Positions 45,541 through 60,817 are shown, counted from the stretch's first letter. The stretch: DNA of 64,000 nucleotides from Candidatus Omnitrophota bacterium (GCA_028716165.1 JAQUQI010000002.1:83228-147227); one strand, 5' to 3'. Numbers and translations are program-made. Notes: generated from the letters alone by a model not told the origin.

Positions 45541-45677
45541 AGACCCTCCATTTTTGAGTTCATTAATATATTTTAAATGTTTTTAAATACTATCATATAA
45601 ATCATTTGGTGTCAAGTATTAGTTTATCAAATAACAGGTATGCGATTTATAGATAGAAATAGCTTTAGGCGCGGTTT

Positions 45678-46100: not shown

Positions 46101-48132
46101 TATTCCTTGCCGTTATACTGCCTTTATTGCGCAGGATAATTTCACGCACTACTGCCAGCCCGTAACCCGAACCGTCTGTTTTGGTAGTGACAAACGGTTC
46201 AAATATTTTATCAAGCTTATCTTCGGGTATACCGCAGCCCGAATCCGTCACCTCTATTTTTACCTTGTTGTTATCTTCTTTTGCCGTGATCAGAATACAC
46301 CCTTTTTCTTTTATAGCTTCCGCTGCGTTTTTAATCAGATTAAAAAATATCTCTTGCATCTGGTCTTTATCAGCAATGATATCAGGTAAATCCAAAGGTA
46401 TATTTTCTTCTATATGTATCCTGTCTGACTGAAGCTTATGCCCCAGAATATTAAGTGTATCTTTCACGCTTTCTTTTATATTAATGGGTTTTGAATCAAC
46501 AATCTTTTTTGGCTTGGCAAAATTTGAAAGCTTGCCTGTTATGCTGGCGACCTTTTGGATCTCGGACATTATGTCATACATTATTTTTTCCACTTCCTTA
46601 AACTGGTTTTCAAGGTCTCTATTTTCAAAAGGCTTGGCCTTTTTGTTTAATATGTAAGCCTGTATCTGGATGCTTATTCTATTTAACGGATTGCATACTT
46701 CATGATTCACGGCAGAGGCCAATGTCCCTATTGCCGCTAATTTTTCACACTGCGACGCCTGCATAAAAAGCTTAGCGTTGCTTATTGCTATTGAAAGCGC
46801 TTTCATTAAAGTCGTGATTATATCTATATCGTTTTCATCATAAGGCTGATCGGATTTTTTTGCCCCTAAACTTAGTATGCCTACCATTTCATTGTGTATA
46901 ACCAGCGGCAGGCACGCCATGGATTTTATTTTTTCCATGTCTTTTTTTACCGGTTCAGAGGCTTGCGTGCTCTTATTGCGGCTCTGGTAAAGCAAGGGCT
47001 GGTAATTTGCTTTAAGCGCCTGGACAAGACTGCTTTTTGAATCAAAATATACGCCTTTTCCGTCCACTCCAGCCGCGTTATACACTTGATACCCCACCTC
47101 TTCTTTGCTAAGGAGCAAGATAGCGCAATTTGATAAACATAAATGCCTGACCAAAGCCTCAATGGTGACATTGCAGAGCGTATCAAGATTTAAGATAGTT
47201 AATGCTTTGTTGGAGAAATCTTTAAGCATTGTTCGGGCGTCATACTTTTTTTGAAAAAGGTATTTATTGGTTAAGCTTATCAAAAAATTATAAACAGGCT
47301 GTTGTAACAGCACAATAATAACAGCGCTTATCGCCAATGCCAAATACCTGGAGTGCGGAATGTATTTTGCGATAAATTCCTGAGTCAAAAGAGCCGCCAT
47401 GATTATAATGGTGAACACAAAACCGAATAGCCCCGCGAAAACAAGGGTTTTTTTGACAATAACTTCAATATCAAGGAGTTTATGGCGTATAATGGCATAA
47501 GCTACTATTATTACGTATACGGCGATTAAGATATTTAAATAAGGAGAGAATTTAATATCGTACCACATAGGCCAATTAGACGCCCCTCCTATAAAACCAA
47601 AAGCTGCTGCAACTATGCAATATTTTATCTGTTCATGCTTAAAACCGCTACTCGTCTTTAGCCCACGAATAAAATGTATAAAACCATACAATACTTGTAT
47701 AAACCAAAAAACTAAATAAATGTTAAAAAATAAACTTGGTATGGGCCATAATCCTAAATTATATTTTAATATGAACCCATTATAAAAAATACCGGAAAAG
47801 TTGAAATAAATAAAAACGAAACTAACAGCGTAAATGACGCGTAGTAAATTTCTTTTCACAACAAGTCTATCGGTAAAAGCGAAAACAAAATGCAAGAAAG
47901 CGGCATTAATTAAAATGACTCCTAAAACCAAAACTTTAAACCAAAAAATTTTACTTGTATGACCAGCCGTTGTCTGCCATAAAAAATAGCCTATGCTATA
48001 AAGAGTGATAGATAAGTTAACGTTCAAATAGGCCTTGCTGACGGAACTATTCGGTTTTTTTAGATAACCAAACAACCCTAATATCAAACTGGTTAATGCG
48101 TTTATAAGTCCTGTAAAAGCTAAAAAAGTCAT
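46054..48132 (-). CDS. sensor histidine kinase: N-terminal 7-8 TM domain + GAF + HisKA + HATPase_c
   Basis: About 8 hydrophobic helices in the first 330 aa. H-box NHEVCNPLNRI. N, G1 and G2 boxes (DSGCGIP, GSGYGLAV). Confidence 0.85.
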   Translation of the reverse strand: MTFLAFTGLINALTSLILGLFGYLKKPNSSVSKAYLNVNLSITLYSIGYFLWQTTAGHTSKIFWFKVLVLGVILINAAFLHFVFAFTDRLVVKRNLLRVIYAVSFVFIYFNFSGIFYNGFILKYNLGLWPIPSLFFNIYLVFWFIQVLYGFIHFIRGLKTSSGFKHEQIKYCIVAAAFGFIGGASNWPMWYDIKFSPYLNILIAVYVIIVAYAIIRHKLLDIEVIVKKTLVFAGLFGFVFTIIIMAALLTQEFIAKYIPHSRYLALAISAVIIVLLQQPVYNFLISLTNKYLFQKKYDARTMLKDFSNKALTILNLDTLCNVTIEALVRHLCLSNCAILLLSKEEVGYQVYNAAGVDGKGVYFDSKSSLVQALKANYQPLLYQSRNKSTQASEPVKKDMEKIKSMACLPLVIHNEMVGILSLGAKKSDQPYDENDIDIITTLMKALSIAISNAKLFMQASQCEKLAAIGTLASAVNHEVCNPLNRISIQIQAYILNKKAKPFENRDLENQFKEVEKIMYDIMSEIQKVASITGKLSNFAKPKKIVDSKPINIKESVKDTLNILGHKLQSDRIHIEENIPLDLPDIIADKDQMQEIFFNLIKNAAEAIKEKGCILITAKEDNNKVKIEVTDSGCGIPEDKLDKIFEPFVTTKTDGSGYGLAVVREIILRNKGSITARNNAGGGSTFCLEFPKA

Positions 48133-48136
48133 AGTT

Positions 48137-49477
48137 CTATCTTTTGGTTATAATCACAAATAGGATTATGCCAGATTTATCTCTTTCAGTTTGCACATCA
48201 AAGTCTATTGATATGCCTTCTTTTATGATATTAAGAAGTTTTTCTTCATGCCTGGGATAGAATGTCCAGTCTGCCCACCAATCTATGGCGACAGGATCGT
48301 ATTTGATTATATCCTTGTGAGCTAAAATCAGGGTTCCGTTCGGTTGCAGGATATCAAACCAAAAAGAGATAAGTAACTTAAGTAGCCTGTCAGGCAGATA
48401 ATCAGCCAAACCTATACTATAAATAAGCGAATAATCGCCTAAAATTTTTTTATAATCCTGACTATCTTTTATATAGTTTAATACATTATGGTTTAGGTAT
48501 CTATGTTCAAGAAGTTTTGATGCATAGGGACTTAAAACTTTTTTGGAAAAATCCAGCGCCTCTTGATCGTGATCAACCAGAGTGAAGATTGTCTTGTTTT
48601 TCGGCGCAAAGCCTGTTGAGAGCATTTCTACTATTTCTCTGCAGGATCCGCAAGCAATATTTAAAATTTTTGTGGGATTAAACCTTGATTTTAAGAGATA
48701 TTTTTCAAGCATATCTTTCATTTTGTCTTTTCTGTTTCTTACGGCCGCAGCGTACTCATTGTTTAAAAAATACATATCCGAACAATACCCTATATTTTCA
48801 GAGATCGCTTTATTGTTATAAACAAGCTCTATAGTAAAATAATCACCTGGATAACCGCGCGGTTTTTCATAGGCGCGTTTAAGAATTTTGCCTCTATAAG
48901 CCCACGGGCCTAACAACGCTCTAAAACATTCTTTTGATTTTTTGATTAATTTCTTATTGGAAAGCAAGTTTTCAAGATTATGGCCTTTTTCCACAATGTC
49001 ATCAGTTATTCTTCCCGCTTTATTACAGGCATCGGTTAATCGTATTTTATTATTTTGGATATCATTGACAAGAGAATCCAATTGCGACATATATTTCTTA
49101 CAGTGTATAGTCCAGAAGTCTGATACAGTTTGTTTATCATCAGAACACGTTATTTCATCAATAATGGGTTTTATGGTTTCGCGTATGCACATGCCGCGCA
49201 GATAGTCTAGATCCCTTTCCTTTAATCTTATAAAACACGCGCCGTACCTGAAACCGTTTTTTTGTATAAGATGTTTGCTCCAAATGATTTTAAATTCTGT
49301 TTTTATGGATTCGTTTGGCGACAGTTCTATATCCGCAACGGCGTTTGACAGTAGCAAAGGTTTTTCAAAAGCAATGCCGAAACCTGTTTCACTGATGTCT
49401 ATGACTTTACCAAATACATTGGAATTGATACGTAAAGGAAAAGAAGTTTTAATTCTTGGGTATAGCCGTTTATTCAT
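48137..49477 (-). CDS. PilZ-domain protein fused to a class-I SAM-methyltransferase-like domain
   Basis: N-terminal RIKTSFPLRIN...DISETGFGIAF matches the PilZ RxxxR / (D/N)xSxGG motifs. C-terminal ILNIACGSCREIVEM resembles MTase motif I with Gly-to-Ala/Cys substitutions. Confidence 0.55.
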   Translation of the reverse strand: MNKRLYPRIKTSFPLRINSNVFGKVIDISETGFGIAFEKPLLLSNAVADIELSPNESIKTEFKIIWSKHLIQKNGFRYGACFIRLKERDLDYLRGMCIRETIKPIIDEITCSDDKQTVSDFWTIHCKKYMSQLDSLVNDIQNNKIRLTDACNKAGRITDDIVEKGHNLENLLSNKKLIKKSKECFRALLGPWAYRGKILKRAYEKPRGYPGDYFTIELVYNNKAISENIGYCSDMYFLNNEYAAAVRNRKDKMKDMLEKYLLKSRFNPTKILNIACGSCREIVEMLSTGFAPKNKTIFTLVDHDQEALDFSKKVLSPYASKLLEHRYLNHNVLNYIKDSQDYKKILGDYSLIYSIGLADYLPDRLLKLLISFWFDILQPNGTLILAHKDIIKYDPVAIDWWADWTFYPRHEEKLLNIIKEGISIDFDVQTERDKSGIILFVIITKR

Positions 49478-50388
49478 TATTTTACCTTTCTGATCAGGTT
49501 ATGCTTAAAGCATATAGACCATATCATTTTATTCAGTCTTTCGGCGTTTTCTTTGTCTTTTTTTTCATCATAGTTATACATATCGTCGCTTTCAATCCAT
49601 ATACCCCCGCTATGCTTGGCGTCTTTAAAACCGTGGGAGTTTATGTTTTGTTGAGTGCCATGGACAATTATTGCTTTCGGCGCATACTTTGATTTCATAA
49701 TATCACTTATCAGGTTGGCGGTTGATTCGGATTTTTTGCCATGCGGCTTGTCCGTTGGTACCTCGGTAGCGCATATTACTATATCCGGCCTGAAAGCAGA
49801 CAGGGCCCTCCGAGCTTCTTTTTGGCAATATACCGGCATATACTCATATTCGCCGTATGGCTCTACAAGCGGCGGAGGATATTTGTGTTCGCCGTCTTGA
49901 ATAGGCAAAAGATAAGGCATCCAGAACTCTCTTTCAATAAAAAGTATTTTTGCCGCCGGAACAATGTCATTTCTTCTTGTGATTTCATCTAAAGAAACGG
50001 GAATTACCCTGGTAGCGTCTTTTGCCTTTAGAACATCGTCTATTCTGTTTATTATCTCATCAAGTAGAATAGGTTTCGGGAAAAAACCGTCCACTCCAAG
50101 TTCTGCTACTGCTTTTTTCACTTCATTGTCATAACTTGTTATGACTAATACCTTTGTATCGGGATATTCCTGACGAATTATTTTTAGTACCTGTATCCCG
50201 TTTATTCCCGGAAGCTGCATATCAAGCAAAACAATGTCAGGTTTTTTTTCTTCCAATATTTTTAAAGCTTCTTCACCTGTCAGTGTTAAATATATTTCAT
50301 GTTTTAATACTTTTGGGATAAGGTCTGTGAGGAGATTAATAATGCTTACATCGTCATCAACAACAAGGATCTTTTTGATATCCGCCAT
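49477..50388 (-). CDS. response regulator: REC domain + uncharacterised C-terminal flavodoxin-like (degenerate REC-like) domain
   Basis: KILVVDDD...DIVLLDMQLPGINGIQ canonical REC. C-terminal beta-alpha-beta pattern (KILFIE, PDIVICATE, AIIVHGT) without a recognised output domain. Confidence 0.7.
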   Translation of the reverse strand: MADIKKILVVDDDVSIINLLTDLIPKVLKHEIYLTLTGEEALKILEEKKPDIVLLDMQLPGINGIQVLKIIRQEYPDTKVLVITSYDNEVKKAVAELGVDGFFPKPILLDEIINRIDDVLKAKDATRVIPVSLDEITRRNDIVPAAKILFIEREFWMPYLLPIQDGEHKYPPPLVEPYGEYEYMPVYCQKEARRALSAFRPDIVICATEVPTDKPHGKKSESTANLISDIMKSKYAPKAIIVHGTQQNINSHGFKDAKHSGGIWIESDDMYNYDEKKDKENAERLNKMIWSICFKHNLIRKVK

Positions 50389-50581: not shown

Positions 50582-52075
50582 TTACAGTGCGGGCTCAAGC
50601 AAATGCCTTGGAAATATATTATCAAGCCCCAGTATGCAGTAGGGGTCAAGCTGTTTTTTAAGGCGCGCCATCTGCGCTACGGCCTCTTTCCCGTAAAGCA
50701 TTTCAAGATAACCGTGTTTGATTTTTCCAATACCGTGTTCGGCGGTGGGTGTTCCGCCAAGCGATATGGCTTTCTGGACCAGCTTATTATATACCCGCTT
50801 TCCTTTTTCGTGCTCGGCTGTATTTTTAGGCAAAATATTTATATGCAGATGCGCCTGGCCTATGTGCCCGAAGCAAAGATATTTTAGACCGGCGCCTGAA
50901 AGCGTATTATCACAGTATTTCATCATAGCCGGCAGGTCTTTGTGGGGGACGGCCATATCAGTGCCTATTTTAAGCATATTATGTTTTTTTAAATATTCGT
51001 TGACCATATCCGGGACATCGTGCCTTATATCGCTTACTCTTTGCCTGTCTTTGTCCGCTAAGGCAAGCCATGTCTCATCTGTCAAGCCGTTACAGCGCGC
51101 TATAAGGTTTGCCCAGGCGCTTATGAGCATGTCGCCATCATCTCCACGCGGTATTTCTTGTTGAAAATATACGGCGCCTTTGGCCAGGGAAGGTATTATA
51201 TCGTGTTTTTGCCTTAAAAGATCCAACGCGTTGGAATCAAAAAATTCAAGGCAAGCGGCATCAAGGGCCGTGTTCTTGATAAGGCTTTGTTCCCTTGCCT
51301 TTAGCGCGAAAGAAACGGCATCATCGTTATTTTTAAAAAAGGCGTAACAATCCATGGACTGCCCGGGTTTTTTTATCAGTTTAAGGGTGGCGTTTAATAT
51401 TATGCCCAGAGTGCCTTCCTGGCCTATAAAAAGGTCTATGGCATCCATATCGTCTTTTATATAATATCCTGCCGCGTTCTTTACCCTCGGCATATCGTAT
51501 GACGGCAGGGTAAGAGACAGCCTGTGTCCTGATTCGGTAGTAATGTCAAGGCGCCTTCTATCGGCAAAAATCTCGCCGCGTTTTAGATTGAGTATCTGCC
51601 CGTTTGAAAGCATGAGCCTTAAGCTTTTAACAAAATCTCTTGTGGCGCCGTATTTGAAGCTCTTTGCTCCCGATGCTGACGTTGAAATGTTTCCTGCCAC
51701 AAAAGATGTTTTTTCCGTGGGGTCCGGCGGATAGAAATAACCGCCTTGATCTACTTTTTCCAGAAGGTCTTTTAATATGAGGCCCGCTCCAACCGTTATT
51801 TCAGCCGTGCCGTCCGGAAGCGGCCTGATAGCGCTTATGGAGTTCATTTTTTCAAGGGATAAGACATTGCCGCCAAAAGGTATTCTTGCTCCGGCGACAC
51901 CCGTGCCGGCTCCGGTTATAGTCAGAGGCGCCATCAGGGAGACTGAATCATGGAGCGCTTGCCGGATATCATCTTCTGTTTCGGCGAAATAGACGTCTTG
52001 GCAGAAGCCTGATTTCAGGTTGGAATAGTCTTCCAAAAATCCTTTAATAATGTCGGGGTCTTTTTTAATTATCAT
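50582..52075 (-). CDS. FAD-linked oxidase (PCMH-type FAD-binding domain; GlcD/D-lactate dehydrogenase-like)
   Basis: FAD-binding motifs TITGAGTGVAGARIPFGG... and the C-terminal FAD-oxidase_C region HGIGKIK. Confidence 0.8.
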   Translation of the reverse strand: MIIKKDPDIIKGFLEDYSNLKSGFCQDVYFAETEDDIRQALHDSVSLMAPLTITGAGTGVAGARIPFGGNVLSLEKMNSISAIRPLPDGTAEITVGAGLILKDLLEKVDQGGYFYPPDPTEKTSFVAGNISTSASGAKSFKYGATRDFVKSLRLMLSNGQILNLKRGEIFADRRRLDITTESGHRLSLTLPSYDMPRVKNAAGYYIKDDMDAIDLFIGQEGTLGIILNATLKLIKKPGQSMDCYAFFKNNDDAVSFALKAREQSLIKNTALDAACLEFFDSNALDLLRQKHDIIPSLAKGAVYFQQEIPRGDDGDMLISAWANLIARCNGLTDETWLALADKDRQRVSDIRHDVPDMVNEYLKKHNMLKIGTDMAVPHKDLPAMMKYCDNTLSGAGLKYLCFGHIGQAHLHINILPKNTAEHEKGKRVYNKLVQKAISLGGTPTAEHGIGKIKHGYLEMLYGKEAVAQMARLKKQLDPYCILGLDNIFPRHLLEPAL

Positions 52076-52308
52076 GGCTTTTTGAAAAACCGGCGGATAT
52101 TCGGCAGGTCAAAAAAATAGTTATGACATTCATTAAAAAAGGGCCCATCGGAAAAGATAAACTATAACCAACAGGCCCTTCTCGGTGGGCTGAACCATTC
52201 ATATTTCAAATGTGAATATAGCATATTTTGCCGCGTAATGCAAGCAAAAAAATAAAAAAAAGCAATCAAAAAACAAGGTTGATAAAAAAGCCTTTTTCTC
52301 CGCCGCCA

Positions 52309-52337
52309 TTGACATAACCTGTATAAAGAGGTATTAT
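52309..52337 (+). promoter_or_regulatory. sigma70-type promoter (TTGACA-17-TATTAT) for the small secreted protein gene at 52355
   Basis: ttgaca 52309-52314 and tattat 52332-52337. GGAGG RBS at 52344-52348. Confidence 0.5.
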
Positions 52338-52354
52338 ATTGACGGAGGCTGTTT

Positions 52355-52681
52355 ATGAGAATAAATATTAAATCTTTGCCTTTATTTGTCCTGCCGGCGG
52401 CTCTTGCCATATTTTTGCTTGCCCTGTATTTACATGCCGCCGAAGACCGAGCCGAGGCTTTGGATAATTATTATGATAATGCCAAAACCTATAGCCCAAC
52501 CGCGCAAACACAGCAGGGGCAATGGCTGGCAGGCCAGGATATGACCACAGAAACCCATCAACCGGTAACATATTTTCCCGTTAATGCCGGTGTCCAGGAT
52601 GATAGCGCGCAGGCCCCTATGCCTTCAGGTTATAATTATGAAGATTCCTGCAAAGATTGTCAAAAAACATGGACAGGCTAA
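52355..52681 (+). CDS. small secreted hypothetical protein
   Basis: Signal peptide LPLFVLPAALAIFLLALYLHAAE. 108 aa. Consensus promoter and RBS upstream. Confidence 0.6.
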   Translation: MRINIKSLPLFVLPAALAIFLLALYLHAAEDRAEALDNYYDNAKTYSPTAQTQQGQWLAGQDMTTETHQPVTYFPVNAGVQDDSAQAPMPSGYNYEDSCKDCQKTWTG

Positions 52682-52716
52682 AAACCCTGCAACAAGCCTG
52701 TAATTTTTCAAGCTCT

Positions 52717-53025
52717 TTATTTACCGCTTCTTTCAACACCCTGCCTAAAACCGGCATTGTATCCGGCCTCGTAACCGGCATTATATCCTGTTTCATATGA
52801 ATCTGTAGACCCTGATACCTGGGAAGAGGCTTGCCTGGGCTGCATGCCGCCTGTGACATCATCAATGATATTTCCCTGCCTGCCTGTCACGACCTTGACG
52901 CCTTCATATATGGCAAGGCCTTTGCCTATATTGCCCCATGTCTTATTAGAGCCGGCATAGCTGATACCGCAGTATGCCTGCGCGATAAGAAACGACAATA
53001 TGATGCCTGTGATAATTTTTTTCAT
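52717..53025 (-). CDS. small secreted protein with GY(N/E)AGYEAGYNAGF repeats
   Basis: Signal peptide ending ...AQAYCGIS. A short Gly/Tyr/Asn/Ala repeat block near the C-terminus. Confidence 0.55.
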   Translation of the reverse strand: MKKIITGIILSFLIAQAYCGISYAGSNKTWGNIGKGLAIYEGVKVVTGRQGNIIDDVTGGMQPRQASSQVSGSTDSYETGYNAGYEAGYNAGFRQGVERSGK

Positions 53026-53048
53026 CCCTGTCCGCCTCCTGTCATATT

Positions 53049-54236
53049 TTATTCATAAACGATATTATCCAGGTATATCACGGCTCCGTCCGGATTGGAA
53101 TTTCTATCGGTCATCCAGTAAAAACCACCGCTGACACAAGTAAGGTCTTTACCGGTGAGGTCTATCTGGTATTCTCTCCAAGTATTTGATAATACCACTG
53201 GCCCGATTTCGGCTTTTACAGAATCAGGGTATTGCCCTGTAATTCCTCCGACGCCGAAGCGGACTATGGTTTCGCCGCCCTTTTCTCCGCGAGCCCAGAA
53301 GCTTAATCTCTTTGCTCCGCTTAAATCATAACCGCCCTGCACATCACCCCAGTTATTGACGGGATTCTGCCAATAGACCCCTGCCCAGCCTGCCCCCTGC
53401 GGAGTTTTGCCCGTATATCTAAAACGCAGGCAGTCTTTTCCGGAATGCGGGTTTTCCTCCCACGAAAGCCTTCTTATCGCATCATAGTCTCCGAGCCAGC
53501 CTGAAGGATGATAATGGTTTTTTGGGTCATTTTCATCAAAAAAGACATAAAAAGGACGAAACATTTTATATATCAATTCATCCTTCCATTCTCTCCATTT
53601 TTGCCTGTCATCTTCATTTAAAGGTGTGGGTTGTTCAGGGGCCCTTGATTTATAAATTACTGTCTGATTGCCTTCGCTGACAACGATCTCTTTACCGATA
53701 ACGGATTGCATGCCCGCGCCTTTGACATAGACCCTTCCCTCATATACTTTCAATATGGTCTGGTCGTCTTTTGCTATTGTTTCAAAACCCGTGCCAAGGA
53801 CCCCGCAAACAGCCGTAGGCGTCTTTATTTCAAATTTGCTTCCGGGATCAAGGCCCTTGAGGTCTGATATTAATTTACCCTGTTCCAGGTTTATGCCCTT
53901 ATCTCCCGAGAGCTCTATCTTTTTTATGCCCAGCGACGTATCTTCTGAAGCGGATATAATATTTTTCATGTCCTTGCCGAATTTGATGTCAACGGCGGAA
54001 CCCTTGGCTGTTTTTAGATAATCGCCGTCGGATATTCTAGTATCAAGCGTCAGGGCCGACCATTGCCCTTCCCTTCCCTTTTTGTGGCTGACATAGCCCG
54101 AAACATAAAAGGCCTCGTTCTTTTGGGATGCCTTGCCCGCGGCAAGGACTTGACCCTTTTGGTAATAAAAATAAACACCGCCTGCCGCGGCAGCAATTAC
54201 CGCTATAATGATTAATAATACAATTAGCTTTGACAT
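53049..54236 (-). CDS. membrane-anchored FecR-domain protein with an uncharacterised ~170-aa C-terminal beta-rich domain (paralog 1)
   Basis: N-terminal TM helix, then a FecR-like region (..GSAVDIKFGKD...TPTAVCGVLGTGFE..ILKVYEGRVYVKG..). The C-terminus shares GWLGDY / GAGWAGVYWQNP.NNWG / GGYDLS / NPDGAVIYLDNIVYE with the next gene. Confidence 0.6.
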   Translation of the reverse strand: MSKLIVLLIIIAVIAAAAGGVYFYYQKGQVLAAGKASQKNEAFYVSGYVSHKKGREGQWSALTLDTRISDGDYLKTAKGSAVDIKFGKDMKNIISASEDTSLGIKKIELSGDKGINLEQGKLISDLKGLDPGSKFEIKTPTAVCGVLGTGFETIAKDDQTILKVYEGRVYVKGAGMQSVIGKEIVVSEGNQTVIYKSRAPEQPTPLNEDDRQKWREWKDELIYKMFRPFYVFFDENDPKNHYHPSGWLGDYDAIRRLSWEENPHSGKDCLRFRYTGKTPQGAGWAGVYWQNPVNNWGDVQGGYDLSGAKRLSFWARGEKGGETIVRFGVGGITGQYPDSVKAEIGPVVLSNTWREYQIDLTGKDLTCVSGGFYWMTDRNSNPDGAVIYLDNIVYE

Positions 54237-54250
54237 GACTGCCCCTGTTT

Positions 54251-54853
54251 TTATTCGTATTTTATGTCATCAAGATAAATCACAAATCCGTCGGGATTGT
54301 CCATACGGCTTGCGGCAAAAACAAAACCGCCGCTGATATAAAAAAGCTCCGCGCCTGAAAGGTCAATGGTGTATTCGCTCCACTCATTGCTAAGCGCCAG
54401 AGGCCCGATTCCAACGGTATCCGAATCCGGAAACTGTCCGGTTATGCCGCCTGTCTTGAATTCCAGTATCTCGCCGCCCTTGGCGCCGCGCGCCATAAGG
54501 GTCAATTTGCCTGCCCTTGACAGATTGTATCCTCCGTCTTTGGAGCCCCAGTTATTTTCGGGATTTTGCCAGAATACTCCCACCCATCCCGCTCCCTGTG
54601 ACGGTTGGCCTGTGTATGTTATTTCAATGCACGAATTGCCTGAATAAGGGCTGTTTTTACAGGATTGATTGATTTTAATTGAGCTGAAATCTCCCATCCA
54701 CCCGGACGGCACAAAATGGTTTTTTTGGGAATTGTTATCATAGTAGATGAAAAAAGGCATTGTCTCTTGATCTTTAGGCTTAAATGCCCACGCGTTACCT
54801 GTTGATAACAGCATCATGGCAATGACAGCGCATATTGCGGCTTTGTTCTTCAT
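54251..54853 (-). CDS. secreted protein consisting of the same uncharacterised C-terminal domain (paralog 2); start at MKNKAAI
   Basis: Signal peptide. About 55% identical to the C-terminal 170 aa of the FecR-domain protein. Confidence 0.6.
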   Translation of the reverse strand: MKNKAAICAVIAMMLLSTGNAWAFKPKDQETMPFFIYYDNNSQKNHFVPSGWMGDFSSIKINQSCKNSPYSGNSCIEITYTGQPSQGAGWVGVFWQNPENNWGSKDGGYNLSRAGKLTLMARGAKGGEILEFKTGGITGQFPDSDTVGIGPLALSNEWSEYTIDLSGAELFYISGGFVFAASRMDNPDGFVIYLDDIKYE

Positions 54854-54990
54854 ATCTTTCCCCTTTCCATAGATACTATTTATTAGACAATAAAATAGTA
54901 TCAAATTTAAGCCCAATAATCAAGATAAATCATGGCAGGATAACAGGAAAATGCCGGTTTTAGGGATACGGGACACAAAGGCCTTGTTAC

Positions 54991-57900
54991 TCATTTTGGC
55001 TTGTCCGCGCAAGAAGCGGCGCCTGAACGGGAAAGCTCCCACCTGTCAAGGACATTTTCCTGAAATTCCTGCATATATAAATATATGCCGGGCGTTACAA
55101 AAAGCGTAACCACCTGCGCGAATATAAGCCCTCCGACGACTATCAGCCCGAGAGGCCTTCTTGAGGCGCCGTCGGCGCCATAACCGAGAGCGATAGGCAG
55201 AGCGCCGATTATAGTTGACGCTCCGGTCATTAGTATCGGCCGAAACCGCACAAGGCAGGCATTGTAGATGGCCTGCGCGCTGTTTTTCTCGCCCTCGTTG
55301 AGATTCTGCTGGGCAAAATCAACCATGATAATACCGTTTTTGGACACAATTCCGAGAAGCATAAATACGCCTATATACGCGTAAAGCGATAACTCTGACC
55401 TGAATAATAAAAGTGTCAGCAGGCCCCCGAAGGCCGCTACGGGAAGCGTGGTAAGTATGGTGAACGGATGTATATAACTTTCATATAAAATACCAAGCAC
55501 TATATACATTAAAAAAATTGCCGCTATCAACAAGCCCGACATGCTTTTAACCGCTGATTGAAATTGTTGGGCCTCGCCCTGGAATGAGCCTGAAGCGCCC
55601 GGAGGCAAAATCGCCCGCGCCAGCCCGGAAACGGTCTTAGTAATTTCCCCAAGCGGCATGTTTTCCTTGAGATTAAACGATATGGTTGCTGAATTCAACT
55701 GGTTATAATGCGGGACATCTTGCGGCCCGACACTCTCCTTTATGTCAATAAGCGAACCCAAAGGCGTAAGTTTGCCGGTGGTTTTTGACCTGACATAGAT
55801 GTTGTCAATGTCGGCAGGATTACGCTTATAGTTTTTGTCTAACTCAACAATGACCCAGTATTGGTCTGTGTCATTTTTAAAAAGCGTTACCTTACCCTGC
55901 GCGTAAGCAAGGCTAAGCGAAGATACAATATCTTCGGCGGTGATGCCGAGTGTTGACGCCCTGTCTCTTAACAGTATAATGTCTAACTGCGGCATATCAA
56001 GTTTTACGCTGTTTTGTATGCCTGTCAGCCCCGGCATGGCCCTCATTTTTTGTTCAAGCAGATTGGCCGCTTCATAGAGTTTTTCCCTGTCCTGCCCGCT
56101 CATGACATAGGAATATTTTGAGCCGGTGGCGGTGCTTTCTCCTCCCGTGCTTATAACAAGGGCCGGCATGGCCATGGTAAATACGAGGCCGTCGCTTATC
56201 ATATACAACTTTGAGTTCAATGCTTCAACGACCTTTGCTATAGGTTGTCTGCCCTTTTCGTTGTGCGGTTTGAGTATAGCGTAAAAAATGCCCGTTGATT
56301 GGTCGGCGCCTGTCTGAAGCCCTGTTACGGTAACGGCTTTTTCTATATTTTTATCGGACTGGAGCACGGCATTGACCTTGTCCTGGAATTGGGACATTTT
56401 TTCAGACGATACGCCCAGAGGCGCCTGCATAAAACCGATGACCGCGCCGCTGTCGCCTTCCGGTATGAAGGTTTTCGGCAATATCCGGATAAACCAAAAC
56501 GTGCCGATAATGCATATTATCCATATGATAAGCGCGATATGCCTGCGCTCAAGGACATATTTTAAAGCGCGGGCATAATAATCCTTGAGCCGTTTTTCTA
56601 TTATGTCGGATTTTTCCTTAAGCCGTGTCTTTTTTTCTTCAGCGCCGCCTGTTTTCGGTTTTTCCTTAAGCATGCGCGCGCACATCATAGGCGTTAATGT
56701 GAGGGCCGCTATAGTGGAACATACTATGGCCGCTACAACCGTAAGCGATAATTCCCTGAACAGCCTGCCGACTATACCGCTCATAAATACGAGCGGCACG
56801 AAAACTATAATAAGGGCGATACTCGTTGAAATAACGGTGCCCGTGATCTCACCCATGCTTTTTATGGCCGCATTCATAGGTTTTTCGCCGGCCTCCACAT
56901 GCCTTACAGTGTTCTCAAGAACGACAATGGCATCATCAACTAAAAATCCTACCGATAAGGTTAGCCCCATCAACGAAAGATTATTAAGGCTGAATCCGGC
57001 CGCGTACATTACGGCAAACGTGCCGACAATCGCAATCGGAAGGGTAATGCTCGGTATCACGGTATCCGAGAGCCTTCCAAGAAAAAGAAATATTATCAAG
57101 ACGACAAGGATAACGGCGATTATTATGGTATCTTTTACGTCCTTAACGGACTCCACAATAGAATTGGATTGGTCGTATAAGATGTCTATTGTTACGGCCC
57201 CGGGCATCTCCTTTTTTAATTCTTCAAGGGTATCCATTATTCTCTTTGACAGAGCGACCGTATTTGCCCCCGATTCCTTGGTAATGGATAAGTATACATT
57301 AGTGTCTTTCCAGCCCAAGCCTTTCTTATATGATATTACCCTTATAACGTCGTTTTTGGAACTGTCATAGCATTTGGCAATATCTTTTAAATACACAGGC
57401 GCGTTGTTCCTGTATGTTATAATGAGATTTTTGTAAGCTTCGGCGTCCATCAACTGCCCCTGCGGCTCTATTGAGAATGTATGGAAAGTTCCGTCAAGGC
57501 TTCCAGCCGGCATTATGATTGTGCCTGTTTTTACGGCTTTTGCCACCTCGTCTATGCCTATATCCATTGCCGCCAGTTTTTTAGGGTCAACCTGCACGCG
57601 GACAGCGGTCTGGGCGCCCCAGACATTGACCTTTGAAACCCCTTCAACCATGCTAAGCCTTTGCCCTATTGCCGTATTACCGTAATCATAGAGTTGGCCC
57701 GAAGTGAGCGTATCGGAACTTACGACAATATGTATGATAGGTTTATCCGACGGGTTTGTTTTTTGATATGTGGGCGGCTGGGGCAGGTCATCGGGCAGAT
57801 TGGACATCGCCCTTGATATGGCCGCCTGGACATCAGGCGCGGCCAGGTCAACATCCACGTTTAGTTCAAATGTCAGAGTTATCTGGGATTGGCTTTCGGT

Positions 57901-58152
57901 ATTGGTTGATATGATCGTTGAAAGCCCTTGTATCTGCATACATTCATTTTCAATGGGTTTTGCAACTGTAGCCGCCATCATTACGGGGCTCGCGCCGGGG
58001 TATACAACTGTAATCGTAATAACGGGGTATTTTACTTCAGGCAAATCGCTTACAGGAAGGCCCATATATGCCGCCGCGCCAAAAATAATGGTTGTTACCA
58101 TCACAAGCACCGTCATTATCGGCCTTCTTATAAAAACTTCGGAAAATATCAT
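54991..58152 (-). CDS. RND efflux transporter permease (HAE1/AcrB-type)
   Basis: 1053 aa with 12 TM helices and two large loops. TM4 GFLVDDAIVVLEN matches the HAE1 signature. Confidence 0.9.
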   Translation of the reverse strand: MIFSEVFIRRPIMTVLVMVTTIIFGAAAYMGLPVSDLPEVKYPVITITVVYPGASPVMMAATVAKPIENECMQIQGLSTIISTNTESQSQITLTFELNVDVDLAAPDVQAAISRAMSNLPDDLPQPPTYQKTNPSDKPIIHIVVSSDTLTSGQLYDYGNTAIGQRLSMVEGVSKVNVWGAQTAVRVQVDPKKLAAMDIGIDEVAKAVKTGTIIMPAGSLDGTFHTFSIEPQGQLMDAEAYKNLIITYRNNAPVYLKDIAKCYDSSKNDVIRVISYKKGLGWKDTNVYLSITKESGANTVALSKRIMDTLEELKKEMPGAVTIDILYDQSNSIVESVKDVKDTIIIAVILVVLIIFLFLGRLSDTVIPSITLPIAIVGTFAVMYAAGFSLNNLSLMGLTLSVGFLVDDAIVVLENTVRHVEAGEKPMNAAIKSMGEITGTVISTSIALIIVFVPLVFMSGIVGRLFRELSLTVVAAIVCSTIAALTLTPMMCARMLKEKPKTGGAEEKKTRLKEKSDIIEKRLKDYYARALKYVLERRHIALIIWIICIIGTFWFIRILPKTFIPEGDSGAVIGFMQAPLGVSSEKMSQFQDKVNAVLQSDKNIEKAVTVTGLQTGADQSTGIFYAILKPHNEKGRQPIAKVVEALNSKLYMISDGLVFTMAMPALVISTGGESTATGSKYSYVMSGQDREKLYEAANLLEQKMRAMPGLTGIQNSVKLDMPQLDIILLRDRASTLGITAEDIVSSLSLAYAQGKVTLFKNDTDQYWVIVELDKNYKRNPADIDNIYVRSKTTGKLTPLGSLIDIKESVGPQDVPHYNQLNSATISFNLKENMPLGEITKTVSGLARAILPPGASGSFQGEAQQFQSAVKSMSGLLIAAIFLMYIVLGILYESYIHPFTILTTLPVAAFGGLLTLLLFRSELSLYAYIGVFMLLGIVSKNGIIMVDFAQQNLNEGEKNSAQAIYNACLVRFRPILMTGASTIIGALPIALGYGADGASRRPLGLIVVGGLIFAQVVTLFVTPGIYLYMQEFQENVLDRWELSRSGAASCADKPK

Positions 58153-59330
58153 TATCTGCTTTCTTTCTCTTTATCTTTACCGTCCGCCTCTACTACAGGC
58201 GCGCCGGGGTAAAGCCCTAATATCCCTGAAATTATGGCTTTTTCACCGGGCCTGGCCCCTTCTTCAATAACAATATAATCATCCTGCCGCAAGCCTGTCT
58301 TTACAAGCCGCAATTCAGCCTTATTTGATTCGTCAAAGATAAAAAGATAATGGCCTTTCTGGCCTATTTTTATGGCGGAATAAGGGGCCAGCACGGCGTT
58401 TTTACTGACGCTCAATATCAACCTGATGGTAGTAAATTGCCCCGCCCATAATTGATGTGTTTTATTGTCAATTAAGGCGCGCGCGTATATTGTTCCCGTT
58501 GTATTATCAACCGCGTTGTTTATAAAAACAAGTTCACCCTCAAAAACGCTTTTGCCTCCTTCAGGCACGATCTCAACTTTTAAAGCGCCCCGGGCCATGG
58601 ATTCTCTCACCCTGAAAAGTTCTCTTTCCGGAAGAGTAAAGTCGGCGAACAAGGCGTCTATATCTTTAATATTGACAAGCACAGGGCCATTGTCAGCTAC
58701 CACTATATTGCCCGGGTCAAGCTGGTTTTTCGCGGTTACGCCGCTTACAGGCGAAACGATATGGCAATAACCCAGATTAATGGCGGCCAACTCAAGCGAT
58801 GCCTTATCAAGGTCAACCTGTCCCTGGGCTGAAAGCAGCTGCGCTTGAAGCGTCTCAAAATCCTGTTTTGATATGAGCTCTTTTTCTACCAGTTTTTTGT
58901 TACGCTCAAGCGTATCTGTTTTTAATTTAAGGTCAGCCTCACTTTGCTCAAGACAGGCCCTGGCCTTGGCCAGTCCGGCTTCATATTCACTCGGATCTAT
59001 GGTGTATAATTTGTCGCCCTGTTTTACATAGTCGCCGTTTTTAAAATGCACCTCTTTTATCCTGCCTGTTACCTGTGATTTTATATCAACGTCAAGCAAA
59101 GGTGAAAGCGTCGCGAAAGACTCCGCGTAAACAGGCACGTCTTTCTGAATTATAAGGCTTGTCTGGATCGGCCTTGGAGGTATGCAGGCCGGTTTCGGCC
59201 GGAATATAATGTTTTTGACGTTAACAAGGGCCGCTAACACAAGCGCCAGCGCCAAGACGCGTTTTAAAATTTTTTTGTCTTTGAGAAGTTTTTTATACGC
59301 GTCAGGGCTTTTATAATTGAATCCTGTCAT
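58152..59330 (-). CDS. RND efflux periplasmic adaptor (membrane fusion protein, AcrA/HlyD family)
   Basis: N-terminal TM/lipoprotein region, coiled-coil hairpin, lipoyl and beta-barrel regions. Start overlaps the RND gene. Confidence 0.85.
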   Translation of the reverse strand: MTGFNYKSPDAYKKLLKDKKILKRVLALALVLAALVNVKNIIFRPKPACIPPRPIQTSLIIQKDVPVYAESFATLSPLLDVDIKSQVTGRIKEVHFKNGDYVKQGDKLYTIDPSEYEAGLAKARACLEQSEADLKLKTDTLERNKKLVEKELISKQDFETLQAQLLSAQGQVDLDKASLELAAINLGYCHIVSPVSGVTAKNQLDPGNIVVADNGPVLVNIKDIDALFADFTLPERELFRVRESMARGALKVEIVPEGGKSVFEGELVFINNAVDNTTGTIYARALIDNKTHQLWAGQFTTIRLILSVSKNAVLAPYSAIKIGQKGHYLFIFDESNKAELRLVKTGLRQDDYIVIEEGARPGEKAIISGILGLYPGAPVVEADGKDKEKESR

Positions 59331-60817
59331 GGGGCCTCTTTCTCCGGCGGTGTTCCGGCTTTTAAAGAACCTGTCGCGTGCGCCAATTCGGCGATTGCCA
59401 CAAATGCCTGCCTTTGAGAATCAACGTATCTTGCCCTGGCATTTGACAGCTCGCTTTGCGCTTGCAAAAGATCAAGCATGCTTCTGATTCCGTGCGAATA
59501 TCCCTCAAGGGCAAGTTCGTGAGATGCCGTAGAGCTGTCAAGATACGCTTTGCCGTATTCCAGTTTTTTGACAGCCGTGTTATAATTAAAATATTTTTTC
59601 CAAACATCGGCGCTTGCCTCAAGCTCAAGCCTTATGAGTTTATCCGTCTGTGCGCCGAATTCCGCCTCTGCCTGGAGTTTTTTGTTAAAATTATAAAAAC
59701 CGTCAAAAATGTCCCAATTAACGCTTAGATACCCGCTATAACTATACCCGTTATCGCGCGCGGGTTTTTCATTATAATATTTATACCAGTCATGACCGTA
59801 TGCCCCGCCCGCGTTAATTTCAGGAAATAGAGCGGAGCTTGCCTGTTTAATTCTTGCTTTTTTTTCGTTTACCAAAGCTCTTGCCGAAGCTATGTCGGGG
59901 CGGCAGGACAATGCTTCATCTATCATCTCCTTGATGTCGGACTCTTGCATCTTAAAAGAGGCCTCTTGGGCCGGAGCGGTAATATCAAAATCCGTGTCCG
60001 CGCTAAAACCCACGGCAATGGCAAGTTCAGCCTTGGCTTGTTTAAGCCTGCCCTTGGCATCTTCCAGTTCGTAAAGCGACCTGTCGCGGCTTGCCTCTGC
60101 CTGCAATTTGTCAAGCTTGGACGCGATGCCTGTCTGGAATTTTAAGTCCGCGGCTTCAAAACCTTTATTGGCGTCAACGAGGTTTGACTCCGCCGATTGC
60201 AGGGTGGAATAAGCGCTAAAAAGCCCGTAATAGGATTTTTGAACGTCAAGTATTAAGTCTTGAAGAGATTGGTTGAAGGCGTAGCCGGCAGATAGCATGT
60301 CTTGATAAGCCGCTTCAATAGAGGCATTTCTGCCTCCGAAATCAAAAAGCAAAAGTTCCGCTTTGCCTGAAGGCCCGTATTTTAATTGGTTTTCTTTTCC
60401 TGATGCCGTATTGGGAACAGATTTCTCTCTTGCGCCCTCGGCGCTGACAGATACCCGCGGCATTAATCCGCTTTTTGCTTGGCCGAGAAGGGCTCTTTTG
60501 GATTTGATGTCATGCCATGATTTTGATGTTATGGGGCTATTGTAAAAAGCAGTGTCAAGGAGTCCGGCAAGTGAAAAAGGCCCTTTGCCATCAGGCACGC
60601 GGCCTCTTATCCCCTGCCATACCTTATCGGGCGTGGGGGTTTTAGACGGTTTGGCGGCAGGCTGCCATTGCTCGTATGGAGGTGTTGGCGCCTTATAATC
60701 TCTGCATCCTGTCAGGCAGAATACCGCTGACAGGGCAAGGGCCGCTAAAGAAAAAATATTTAATATTTTATACCCGTGTATATATTTTTTGGCGAAAAAT
60801 ACGCCTTTTATAGCCAT
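59327..60817 (-). CDS. outer-membrane efflux protein (TolC-like OMF)
   Basis: Lipobox LTGC. Two OEP repeat regions rich in coiled-coil heptads. 496 aa. Confidence 0.8.
   Translation of the reverse strand: MAIKGVFFAKKYIHGYKILNIFSLAALALSAVFCLTGCRDYKAPTPPYEQWQPAAKPSKTPTPDKVWQGIRGRVPDGKGPFSLAGLLDTAFYNSPITSKSWHDIKSKRALLGQAKSGLMPRVSVSAEGAREKSVPNTASGKENQLKYGPSGKAELLLFDFGGRNASIEAAYQDMLSAGYAFNQSLQDLILDVQKSYYGLFSAYSTLQSAESNLVDANKGFEAADLKFQTGIASKLDKLQAEASRDRSLYELEDAKGRLKQAKAELAIAVGFSADTDFDITAPAQEASFKMQESDIKEMIDEALSCRPDIASARALVNEKKARIKQASSALFPEINAGGAYGHDWYKYYNEKPARDNGYSYSGYLSVNWDIFDGFYNFNKKLQAEAEFGAQTDKLIRLELEASADVWKKYFNYNTAVKKLEYGKAYLDSSTASHELALEGYSHGIRSMLDLLQAQSELSNARARYVDSQRQAFVAIAELAHATGSLKAGTPPEKEAP

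Follow-up and report, generated by a model that had tools for sequence, protein, structure and literature searches.

A 64,000-nucleotide stretch of DNA from a Candidatus Omnitrophota bacterium (the window) carries two adjacent genes that share one CBM-like domain, encoded first as a free protein with a signal peptide and then as a fusion to a membrane helix and a FecR-type domain. The pair probably binds glycan. That its products are, more fully, exported free and membrane-tethered β-glucan-binding paralogues is a reading that we hold with about even confidence. A preliminary description of this DNA had suggested envelope sensing or ligand capture; ligand capture is the better-supported half, and for sensing we found no identifiable output.

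All four open reading frames lie where they had been placed (Table 1), and the NCBI record of the source MAG, from a Candidatus Omnitrophica bacterium, has annotations for all of them (PHV77_02120, 02125, a 02130 equivalent and 02135). We take the ATG at 54853, which follows the Shine-Dalgarno-like GGAAAGGGGAAAG, as the start of the free-copy gene instead of the TTG at 54916, the outer coordinate of the earlier finding, which we reject. The stop-to-stop frame of the fusion (ORF w_53052_54266) offers at most ten further codons upstream of its start. The weak promoter match in front of the free copy may be the pair's own, and a gap of 150–480 bp at this position persists in relatives without the RND operon. 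The 102-aa gene is probably co-transcribed with the fusion. A weak terminator-like hairpin lies at 52690–52673, and a promoter-like TTGACA-17-TATTAT (11 of 12 positions) lies at 52309–52337, near the 108-aa ORF. An Rfam scan of 51800–55300 returned one match, at chance level.

Table 1. Features of the locus, in coordinates counted from the first letter of the window.
Feature	Coordinates	Strand	Description
Free-copy gene	54251..54853	-	200-aa product: SPase-I-type signal peptide (MKNKAAICAVIAMMLLSTGNAWA|F, by eye) and one CBM-like β-jelly-roll, ~33–200
Fusion gene	53049..54236	-	395 aa: signal-anchor helix, FecR-type β domain, helix and flexible linker, CBM-like domain
Single hydrophobic helix of fusion	54159..54227	-	Codons for residues 4–26; Met-Ser-Lys alone before the helix
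FecR domain of fusion	53730..54020	-	Pfam PF04773 match, residues 73–169
Gly148-Thr149 of fusion	53790..53795	-	Inside invariant motif TPxAxCGVxGTxF; translation TAVCGVLGTGFET
CBM-like domain of fusion	53052..53555	-	Residues 228–395; paralogue of free copy; family-profile hmmsearch E 3.8e-86
102-aa small secreted protein	52717..53025	-	C-terminal (GYxA)3 glycine-zipper-like repeat; 23 bp downstream of fusion
108-aa small ORF, convergent	52355..52681	+	Hydrophobic N-terminus; C-terminal GYNYEDSCKDCQKTWT conserved
Weak sigma-70-like promoter match	54875..54904	-	9/12 consensus positions; in the 137-bp gap between RND gene and free copy
OEP-MFP-RND operon directly upstream of pair	59327-60817, 58152-59330, 54991-58152		Pfam

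The preliminary description assigned the fusion a membrane helix, a FecR-like domain and a ~170-aa domain, and gave the free gene a signal peptide and the same domain. Alignment bears this out: residues 228–395 of the fusion match residues 33–200 of the free copy over ~168 aa at 55% identity (E 5e-67), which is far beyond chance and spans the whole mature free-copy product. Every conserved block listed there is present (GWLGDY, GAGWAGVYWQNPxNNWG, GGYDLSxAxxL, ARGxKGGE, GGITGQxPDS and NPDGxVIYLDxIxYE), and most residues of these blocks are invariant across 37 homologues from Omnitrophota and Endomicrobia. The same 37 sequences have 36 invariant columns and a mean column identity of 55%, and the identity of the domain across phyla, at 55–70%, is unusually high for a CBM. 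Free and fused copies form separate clades in an NJ tree without support values and, judged by sequence, are anciently diverged paralogues. Together with mean identities, the tree loosely pairs the free copy with the second domain (D2), and the fused copy with the first (D1), of the tandem two-copy relatives described below; the fused-to-D1 affinity rests on a mean identity of 52.4% versus 50.6%.

The shared domain is unrecognised by sequence, as had been proposed. The free copy matched nothing in Pfam or NCBIfam, and scans of the 37 close homologues returned only sub-threshold jelly-roll families. A check against CBM families gave a divided result. The HMMs for CBM30 (Pfam PF21582) and CBM11 (Pfam PF03425) matched no window protein; among the 37 close homologues the former matched one (E 0.1) and the latter none. 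A fold search with the domain, in contrast, matched CBM30, CBM8, CBM11 and CBM4, and each of the twelve best structural matches is either a CBM or a glycosidase that contains one. The domain has the β-jelly-roll fold of type-B CBMs and is a remote relative of the β-glucan-binding modules CBM30 and CBM11. It is only 15–19% identical to their type-B representatives from C. thermocellum Cel9D-Cel44A (CBM30; PDB 2c24/1wmx) and Lic26A-Cel5E (CBM11; 1v0a/6r3m), and conservation within its family is far higher than is typical of CBMs. When the family profile and a five-copy relative were compared with PDB sequences, only noise or nothing was returned, and no solved structure related by sequence was found. 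Literature searches on Omnitrophota with FecR or with glucan likewise found nothing on this domain family.

We extended the analysis to the wider family, which comprises some 3,100 clusters at 50% identity and in which one protein may carry as many as eight copies of the domain. Here the link to known CBMs also appears at the sequence level: the Pfam CBM30 model matches 5 of 58 multidomain relatives (best 31.4 bits against a cut-off of 27) and the CBM_11 model matches two (E 1e-9). Both of the CBM30 matches that we checked fall inside copies of the domain (in P0242, at 661–725 within the copy at 597–745), and UniRef names an E. proavitum homologue 'CBM11 domain-containing protein'. Among fusion partners a GH17 catalytic domain is the commonest, found in 15 of the 58; GH26, GH2_C and NosD/β-helix domains are others. 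In P0247, a catalytic domain at 229–479 matches the GH17 β-1,3-glucanosyltransferase 4wtp (E 9e-31), and three copies of the shared domain lie behind it. Some family members are contiguous modules of a carbohydrate-active enzyme, as CAZy expects of a carbohydrate-binding module, whereas the window proteins carry no catalytic domain: one copy is free-standing and the other is fused to a FecR domain. The family differs from CBM30 and CBM11 in its usual catalytic partner, which is GH17 and not GH9, GH44, GH5 or GH26.

Tandem two-copy proteins occur in Ca. Velamenicoccus archaeovorus and in another Omnitrophota genome, both times in glycan-utilisation loci. The gene order there is GH94, sugar-binding protein, two permeases, GH, tandem protein, GH158-like, TPR protein, GH116 and ROK kinase. 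The GH just before the tandem protein has a GH158 match in the PDB (E 1e-14), and GH158 is a family of β(1,3)-glucanases (PMC7157763, PMC13195107). The secreted, β-rich, carbohydrate-binding appearance that the preliminary description read from the W/G/N-rich blocks is strengthened by these loci, by the fold matches and by the GH17, GH26 and GH2-type fusions. In E. proavitum, four paralogues come after three GH2_C-like genes.

The same evidence bears on a different ligand class. If the CBM likeness went no deeper than the fold, the β-sandwich could bind a protein or other non-carbohydrate surface, for example that of a host or prey of these possibly host-dependent nanobacteria. We consider this improbable, given that the best structural matches are without exception CBMs or enzymes that contain them, that the commonest fusion partner is a glycosidase-family catalytic domain and that the tandem genes sit within loci for sugar uptake; an inner-membrane tether would also be an odd site for a host adhesin.

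Harder to set aside, although still unlikely, is the possibility that the domain binds an invariant glycan of the cell's own envelope, such as periplasmic or osmoregulated β-glucans, a polymer of the capsule or sheath, or the glycan strands of peptidoglycan. In that case the pair would serve envelope structure or homeostasis, with the tethered copy linking the polymer to the inner membrane. The very high conservation of the domain would be explained by an invariant endogenous ligand no less readily than by a dietary glycan. The gene contexts of some relatives point the same way. In two Endomicrobia genomes the free copy is fourth in an operon that also encodes an ECF sigma factor, a zf-HC2 anti-sigma factor and a 123-aa membrane protein, a hint of a role in envelope stress; in E. 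proavitum another copy follows a 933-aa OmpA-domain protein. A GT2 glycosyltransferase lies two to three genes upstream in most of the Omnitrophota loci, and the window pair is free-standing, with no glycoside hydrolase or sugar transporter gene adjacent. However, one locus (L017) keeps the pair without the upstream GT2-Inositol_P-FMN reductase block, and the fusions and tandem contexts of the family (GH17, GH158-like, GH94, GH116, ABC transporter and ROK) belong to degradation and uptake, not synthesis. A CpxP/Spy-like LTXXQ assignment for the 123-aa Endomicrobia neighbour is unsupported, the resemblance being sub-threshold (E 0.047) and found in one of the two proteins.

The N-terminal half of the fusion is a genuine FecR-type module. 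The protein begins with Met-Ser-Lys and a hydrophobic helix, and all 24 aligned fusion homologues start with M-x-K/R followed by a hydrophobic stretch. The FecR assignment survives HMM detection: the PF04773 match (E 1.4e-10) scores 41.9 bits against a gathering cut-off of 24 and covers profile positions 2–96 of 97, and all 24 fusions carry a precomputed PF04773 annotation. The AF2 model of the full-length fusion has a helix at 2–33, strands at 40–195 that make up the FecR-type β domain, a helix at 208–224 and strands at 254–394, with pLDDT below 50 at residues 227–251. In Foldseek searches the N-terminal half matched 4m0n (E 1.8e-6; TM to target 0.53) and PupR 6ovk_R (E 1.3e-5), both anti-sigma periplasmic domains, and the C-terminal half matched CBM30 (E about 2e-5). 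A search with the FecR half alone recovered the same fusion family and one 27%-identical protein, and no informative sister architectures.

Gly148-Thr149 is invariant in the 24 fusion homologues, and hhalign against E. coli FecR places it on G181-T182. Gly181-Thr182 is the known self-cleavage site of E. coli FecR (PMC8144685). Going by these two residues only, the FecR-type domain of the fusion probably self-cleaves at the corresponding bond.

The likeness to FecR, PupR and FoxR extends to a predicted single-pass inner-membrane topology, a periplasmic PF04773 domain and a Gly-Thr motif at the homologous position, and the fusion matches the PupR C-terminal cell-surface signalling domain and BDI_1681 structurally. 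At both ends, however, the proteins differ. The cytoplasmic part of the fusion is three residues, compared with the anti-sigma domain of about 85–100 residues in FecR, PupR and FoxR. At the other end, the FecR_C/STN-type subdomain is replaced by the CBM-like domain, and no FecR_C or STN-like subdomain was matched in the fusion by Pfam at E up to 1. Lacking a cytoplasmic domain, the fusion is no anti-sigma factor and cannot control a sigma factor, and no sigma partner is to be expected. The preliminary description was correct that no ECF sigma factor is encoded nearby, but the puzzle that it saw there dissolves, with all 24 homologues having only three residues before the helix.

The sigma-factor search itself was negative: phmmer and hmmsearch, run with a small profile and three ECF sigma queries, matched no ORF of the 64-kb window at or above 9 bits, with modest sensitivity (FecI, compared with an Endomicrobium ECF sigma factor as the positive control, reached only E 0.0014). 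The called genes of L003, L004, L008, L010, L017 and L018 include none of the Sigma70_r2/r4 or TonB-receptor families, and neither the window nor seven related loci contain a gene for a TonB-dependent transducer or an S2P protease. FecR, PupR and FoxR, by comparison, have an adjoining ECF sigma factor and TonB-dependent transducer.

These observations weigh on the idea that the fusion is a FecR-type glycan sensor in which a CBM stands in place of the transducer-binding C-terminal domain. The free paralogue would be a co-receptor or competitor, and ligand would trigger FecR-style cleavage, with the signal passing through the membrane helix to an unlinked partner. In its favour are the FecR domain with its invariant Gly-Thr motif, the closest structures, one of which comes from a Bacteroidales species where anti-sigma factors control glycan loci, the Endomicrobia operons that tie the free domain to a sigma/anti-sigma pair, and a histidine kinase and response-regulator cluster 3–8 kb downstream of the pair. 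We nevertheless think it doubtful: nothing beyond Met-Ser-Lys is available to hold or release a sigma factor, the expected partner genes were not found in the window or the seven related loci, and the two-component cluster has been inserted in the window alone. A more specific form, for which we see a similarly slim chance, is an undescribed FecR-based receptor whose transducer-signal-receiving domain has been swapped for a glycan-binding module. Periplasmic β-glucan, perhaps bridged to the tethered D1-type copy by the free D2-type one, would govern the Gly-Thr and the site-1/site-2 cleavages directly, with output through the membrane helix to an unlinked partner. If true, cell-surface signalling would have given rise, in a poorly known phylum, to a sigma-independent offshoot that senses its ligand directly.

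Leptospira exports proteins that have a FecR domain but no anti-sigma domain, namely LipL45, Lsa33 and Lsa19; processing turns LipL45 into a smaller, peripheral membrane form. Of the NCBIfam models, Lsa33 (E 6.5e-14) and LipL45 (E 7.6e-8) match residues 47–214 of the fusion best, both far below the cut-offs of the LipL45/Lsa33 models NF033165 and NF047849 (Lsa33, 51.8 against 420 bits; LipL45, 31.8 against 350 bits). The Leptospira proteins are lipoproteins without a CBM-like C-terminal domain, whereas the fusion is anchored by its helix and has no Cys in a lipobox context at its N-terminus. A FecR domain with an intact self-cleavage motif has here been reused outside sigma-factor control, and 'anti-sigma factor' calls made from a FecR match deserve caution.

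Gene order supports the pair as the unit. The free copy is followed by the fusion, 3–24 bp apart, in seven of seven distinct Omnitrophota loci (the window, L003, L004/L005, L008/L009, L010/L011, L017 and L018), and the pairing holds at identities as low as 49% and beside different upstream genes. All seven loci belong to a single, broadly syntenic Omnitrophota lineage, and the adjacency may partly reflect inheritance rather than function. As described previously, the RND operon adjoins the set in the window, where it lies directly upstream of the pair on the same strand, and the arrangement recurs in L008/L009 and L010/L011. It could be taken to mean that the pump uses the pair and the small proteins as accessories in the periplasm. 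Comparison of the loci largely refutes this, and we regard it as highly improbable: in L003, L004/L005, L017 and L018 the pair is intact and the three pump genes are missing, with an EamA, FMN reductase or TrkA_C gene upstream instead. It seems that the pair is the older and that the pump was inserted beside it in one clade.

We therefore return to the β-glucan-binding reading. The unit would be a conserved two-gene operon, to which a third small gene has been added in the window's clade, and both products would be exported. The 200-aa protein would be set free in the periplasm or outside the cell as a soluble glycan-binding protein, and the 395-aa protein would be held in the inner membrane by its uncleaved N-terminal helix, with the FecR-type β domain, a helix and a flexible linker of ~25 residues keeping the tethered binding domain off the membrane. 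Both would most likely bind β-glucan chains or oligosaccharides, probably β-1,3-linked, and, perhaps in cooperation, retain or position them at the inner membrane. After self-cleavage as in FecR and FoxR, the membrane stub would hold the C-terminal fragment non-covalently. On this model the pair would be non-catalytic partners of the β-glucan uptake and degradation machinery that is encoded beside the tandem two-domain version in related Omnitrophota.

A functional parallel is offered by the surface glycan-binding proteins (SGBPs) of Bacteroides β(1,3)-glucan utilisation loci, which are also non-catalytic and have no sequence relationship to the window pair; they are outer-membrane lipoproteins that work with SusC/SusD (PMC7157763). 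Here the tether is instead an inner-membrane helix and FecR domain, the transporter type is ABC and the window pair lies outside such a locus.

The finding alone does not reveal a new mechanism. It defines a large Pfam-less domain family, probably β-glucan-binding, that is prominent in two groups, Omnitrophota and Endomicrobia. Almost everything known of their physiology comes from genomes, and recognising the domain would improve the annotation of their sugar-utilisation loci. It also points to β-1,3-glucan as a substrate for Omnitrophota, which are discussed mainly as predators or parasites.

The window pair is flanked by FMN reductase or RND genes upstream and by a cytoplasmic FAD-linked oxidase downstream. 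The oxidase was considered as a secreted oligosaccharide oxidase and rejected, as its FAD-oxidase_C domain is of the GlcD type and inspection by eye showed no signal peptide.

The preliminary description treated the pump, the pair and the small proteins as one module, which the distribution of these genes contradicts: the RND operon is absent from four of the seven loci, and the two small ORFs are full-length in two, the window and its closest relative. We reject the small ORFs as conserved module parts and regard them as clade-specific neighbours. The 102-aa ORF is absent from L003, L004, L017 and L018, and the 108-aa ORF, which is fast-evolving, has a counterpart in L008 (39% identical) and in none of the other loci. 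At the same position in L008 the 102-aa ORF has a 75%-identical homologue, and in L010 a truncated remnant of 61 aa. Its protein has sub-threshold similarity only, to FliH and Yae1_N, in Pfam and NCBIfam, and the GYNAGYEAGYNAGF repeat that had been noted in it is real.

All four open reading frames (ORFs) picked out in the preliminary description are identical to NCBI proteins, encoded on one 257-kb contig of a Candidatus Omnitrophica (Omnitrophota) MAG. The FecR-fused and free paralogues it proposed were recovered by comparison: the C-terminal 168 residues of the 395-aa fusion share 55% identity with the mature 200-aa free copy (E 5e-67), and every sequence block listed for the shared domain is present and largely invariant in homologues. 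The free copy begins at the ATG at 54853, preceded by a good Shine-Dalgarno-like stretch, and the TTG at 54916 is not its start.

Coordinates of the genes and segments discussed (window positions unless a relative's locus, L-number, is named)
Feature	Position	Strand	Remark
OEP gene	59327-60817	-	first in minus-strand gene order
MFP gene	58152-59330	-	after OEP
RND pump gene	54991-58152	-	137-bp gap to 200-aa gene
Free copy, 200 aa	54251-54853	-	14-bp gap to 395-aa gene
Fusion, 395 aa	53049-54236	-	23-bp gap to 102-aa gene
Small secreted protein, 102 aa	52717-53025	-	within the fusion-FAD oxidase slot
Small secreted protein, 108 aa	52355-52681	+	convergent with minus-strand genes
Sigma-70 promoter-like site	52309-52337	+	TTGACA-17 nt-TATTAT, 11/12 positions, 18 nt upstream of 108-aa ATG
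Cytoplasmic GlcD-type FAD-linked oxidase	50582-52075		beyond small ORFs
Response regulator	49477-50388	-	43945-50388 block
PilZ + methyltransferase-like protein	48137-49477	-	43945-50388 block
7TM-GAF histidine kinase	46054-48132	-	43945-50388 block
Second response regulator	45678-46100	-	43945-50388 block
531-aa protein, no Pfam match	43945-45540	-	43945-50388 block
Fusion-FAD oxidase slot, window	52076-53048		two small secreted ORFs
Slot, L008	11189-14737		two small ORFs, 386-aa gene, R.Pab1-type restriction endonuclease
Slot, L010	11183-12578		unrelated genes; 198-aa secreted protein with GGYDY-type repeats
Slot, L018	9186-10103	-	unrelated 231-aa gene
Tandem-gene locus	L015 1-15151; L016 231-14589		Omnitrophota, including Ca. 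Velamenicoccus archaeovorus
Endomicrobia sigma/anti-sigma operon	L002 3592-5661; L006 6347-8615		free-domain protein as fourth gene
Identical 200-aa genes and paralogue cluster, Endomicrobium proavitum (CP009498.1)	L001 8001-15976; L002 5059-5661		the two 200-aa genes 100% identical

We compared seven distinct Omnitrophota loci (the window, L003, L004/L005, L008/L009, L010/L011, L017 and L018), whose fusions are 49-82% identical. The free copy lies immediately before the fusion in all seven, on the same strand and 3-24 bp away, and the gene upstream of the pair is variously an RND pump, an FMN reductase, an EamA transporter or a TrkA_C protein. This tight spacing and changing upstream flank argue for an operon. 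Because the compared genomes share broad synteny, adjacency of the pair carries less weight here than in a comparison of unrelated genomes. The three efflux genes are confined to the window and the two relatives closest to it, where they seem to have been inserted between the FMN-reductase gene and the older pair. L008 encodes a 75% identical counterpart of the 102-aa protein and L010 a 61-aa remnant, and the other loci lack it; the 108-aa protein has its sole counterpart in L008 (39% identity). The conserved unit is therefore the two-gene pair, with the pump and the small secreted proteins as clade-specific neighbours, and the earlier suggestion that the whole set forms one module does not survive. 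The same comparison essentially excludes a role for the pair as an RND pump accessory, which we regard as highly improbable.

The slot between the fusion and FAD oxidase genes is a variable hot spot; its content differs among loci, and L003, L004 and L017 have nothing there. The 108-aa protein encoded in it keeps a C-terminal CxxC-containing motif, GYNYEDSCKDCQKTWT, in L008, where the remainder is just 39% identical. On the other side of the oxidase, a block at 43945-50388 (-) separates it from the 248-aa/TPM/LemA genes. Each of the six related loci has these genes close behind the oxidase, separated from it by no more than one small gene; the block is therefore an insertion particular to the window genome.

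The FecR-like domain ascribed to the fusion was confirmed by Pfam above the curated cut-off (residues 73-169, 41.9 versus 24 bits). A full-length model (pLDDT 80) comprises a helix (2-33), a beta domain (40-195), a second helix (208-224), a disordered linker (227-251) and a jelly roll (254-394). Foldseek matched the N-terminal half to anti-sigma periplasmic domains (4m0n, E 1.8e-6; PupR 6ovk, 1.3e-5) and the C-terminal half to CBM30, CBM8 and CBM11. All 24 aligned fusions (48-82% identical) start M-x-K/R with a hydrophobic helix directly after, and the reading frame allows at most ten more codons upstream; hence there is no cytoplasmic anti-sigma domain. Pfam detected no FecR_C/STN-type domain in the fusion. 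In line with the preliminary remark that none is encoded nearby, no ECF sigma factor is detectable within the 64-kb window, and the called genes of the related Omnitrophota loci include neither a sigma factor nor a TonB-dependent transducer or site-2 protease. This absence had been presented as a puzzle, but it is expected of a fusion without an anti-sigma domain. The fusion is a FecR-domain protein and not a sigma regulator, and annotators should not equate a 'FecR' match with 'anti-sigma factor'. Among named proteins, the Leptospira FecR-type lipoproteins Lsa33 and LipL45 come nearest to the FecR half, at scores far below family cut-offs; they offer a precedent in kind for a FecR tether lacking an anti-sigma domain. 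When only the FecR half was used as query, nothing matched beyond the same fusion family and one 27%-identical protein. Joining FecR to a CBM, in obligate partnership with a free paralogue, seems not to have been described before.

The motif TPxAxCGVxGTxF is invariant across the fusions, and hhalign places Gly148-Thr149 of the fusion exactly on Gly181-Thr182 of E. coli FecR. The FecR self-cleavage site is a GT motif common to several Pseudomonas anti-sigma factors, and cleavage there is proposed to need no enzyme (PMC8144685). An attractive but improbable alternative is that the fusion senses glycan directly, by way of the FecR cleavage cascade, and signals through its membrane helix; it has no identifiable output.

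No Pfam or NCBIfam family recognises the shared domain. Scanning 37 homologues singly gave only sub-threshold matches, to the jelly-roll families 3keto-disac_hyd, CBM_4_9 and CBM30, and the family profile found no solved structure by sequence. A carbohydrate-binding beta-sandwich had been guessed from the W/G/N-rich blocks, and structure prediction bears this out: the domain matches CBM30, 8, 11 and 4, followed by CBM27, 29, 22, 6, 16, 61 and others (6-19% identity), so the predicted fold is the type-B CBM beta-jelly-roll. Taken alone, the carbohydrate-binding nature of the domain is quite likely. A literature search found no paper on this family; it is a new one, but both its fold class and its function class are very well known.

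When 1.84 billion representative proteins were searched exhaustively with the family profile, 3,111 clusters matched at E ≤1e-3 and 2,226 at 1e-10. Architectures range from a signal peptide plus single domain to eight copies (the relative P0241, 1,745 aa), with four to five in P0242-P0246. Among 58 multidomain members scanned, GH17 was matched in 15, the Pfam CBM30 model in five, CBM_11 in two, and GH26, GH2_C, NosD and Por_Secre_tail in two each. Both CBM30 matches examined (P0242, P0243) sit within copies of the shared domain, making the family a remote sequence relative of CBM30. In P0247, a catalytic domain (229-479) matching the GH17 beta-1,3-glucanosyltransferase 4wtp (E 9e-31) is followed by three domain copies, the classical enzyme-plus-CBM layout. 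Other partners in relatives are beta-helix/NosD, Laminin_G_3, cadherin-like, PKD, FG-GAP, cohesin and caspase domains and a type-IX secretion tail. Only P0310 of ten ~400-aa relatives inspected is a FecR fusion. In P0304, P0314, P0317, P0340, P0362 and P0376 (378-419 aa), one clear C-terminal copy follows ~200 residues without a Pfam match, which may represent either a first copy that has diverged or tethering modules of another kind.

The Omnitrophota are usually discussed as predatory or host-dependent. In this phylum the domain very commonly occurs as two tandem copies in a secreted protein of ~380 aa, for instance in Ca. Velamenicoccus archaeovorus and Ca. Gygaella. In two genomes its gene comes after genes for GH94, a sugar-binding protein (SBP_bac_1), two ABC permeases and a 760-817-aa glycosidase, and before those for a 411-aa glycosidase, a TPR protein, GH116 and a ROK kinase. 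The best solved relative of both glycosidases is GH158 (9oro; E 1e-14 and 7e-7), a beta(1,3)-glucanase family (PMC7157763, PMC13195107). This conserved locus looks like a beta-glucan utilisation system. Fold, fusions and neighbourhoods thus all predict that the ligand is a carbohydrate, with a beta-glucan the likeliest and a beta-1,3 linkage plausible; that the shared domain is instead a non-carbohydrate adhesin seems a slim prospect.

As the likeliest mechanism we propose, with about even confidence, that the pair is an exported device for glycan capture or retention at the inner membrane that includes a probably self-cleaving FecR domain. Both proteins would be exported. Signal peptidase would release the free copy (between A-W-A and F, judged by eye), and the fusion would stay in the inner membrane, where a FecR-type stalk and a flexible linker would present its binding domain. 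The pair would bind beta-glucan chains or oligosaccharides and keep them at the inner membrane, a non-catalytic complement to glucan-degrading and ABC-uptake genes encoded elsewhere. The FecR domain would probably cleave itself at Gly148-Thr149, after which the binding half would be held non-covalently and could be released. Three elements of this proposal are inferences: the preference for beta-1,3 linkages, the compartment in which the pair resides and self-cleavage of the FecR domain.

An NJ tree of 78 domains, without support values, separated free copies, fused copies and the first (D1) and second (D2) domains of the tandem proteins into four clades. The fused copies join D1 in the tree, with a small contrast in mean identity (52.4% to D1, 50.6% to D2); by mean identity the free copies are nearest D2 (56%, versus 50% to D1). 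Free and fused copies are old paralogues. If this clade pairing holds, it suggests that D1-type and D2-type domains may work together, covalently joined in the tandem protein and as a tethered-plus-soluble pair at the window locus.

In two Endomicrobia genomes, the fourth gene of an operon encodes a free-domain protein (200-204 aa); the first three encode an ECF sigma factor, a zf-HC2 anti-sigma factor and a membrane protein of 123-124 aa, which has only a sub-threshold match to LTXXQ/CpxP (E 0.047). The domain gene is linked there to sigma signalling, whereas the Omnitrophota pair has no such link. This operon, like the unusually high conservation of the domain, fits an alternative in which the ligand is the cell's own envelope glycan and the pair an envelope-homeostasis component, which we judge rather unlikely. 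Recognising the shared domain and the FecR fusion should be useful for annotating the carbohydrate biology of Omnitrophota and Endomicrobia.

In E. proavitum, four domain paralogues follow three GH2_C-like genes and a gene for a 933-aa OmpA-domain protein. The UniRef label of an E. proavitum protein is 'CBM11 domain-containing', and the current Pfam CBM_11 model does not match it. The two identical 200-aa genes of this genome lie about 840 kb apart, one of them beside a Transposase_mut gene, and three further paralogues (219, 273 and 291 aa) are clustered after the GH2_C-like and OmpA-domain genes.
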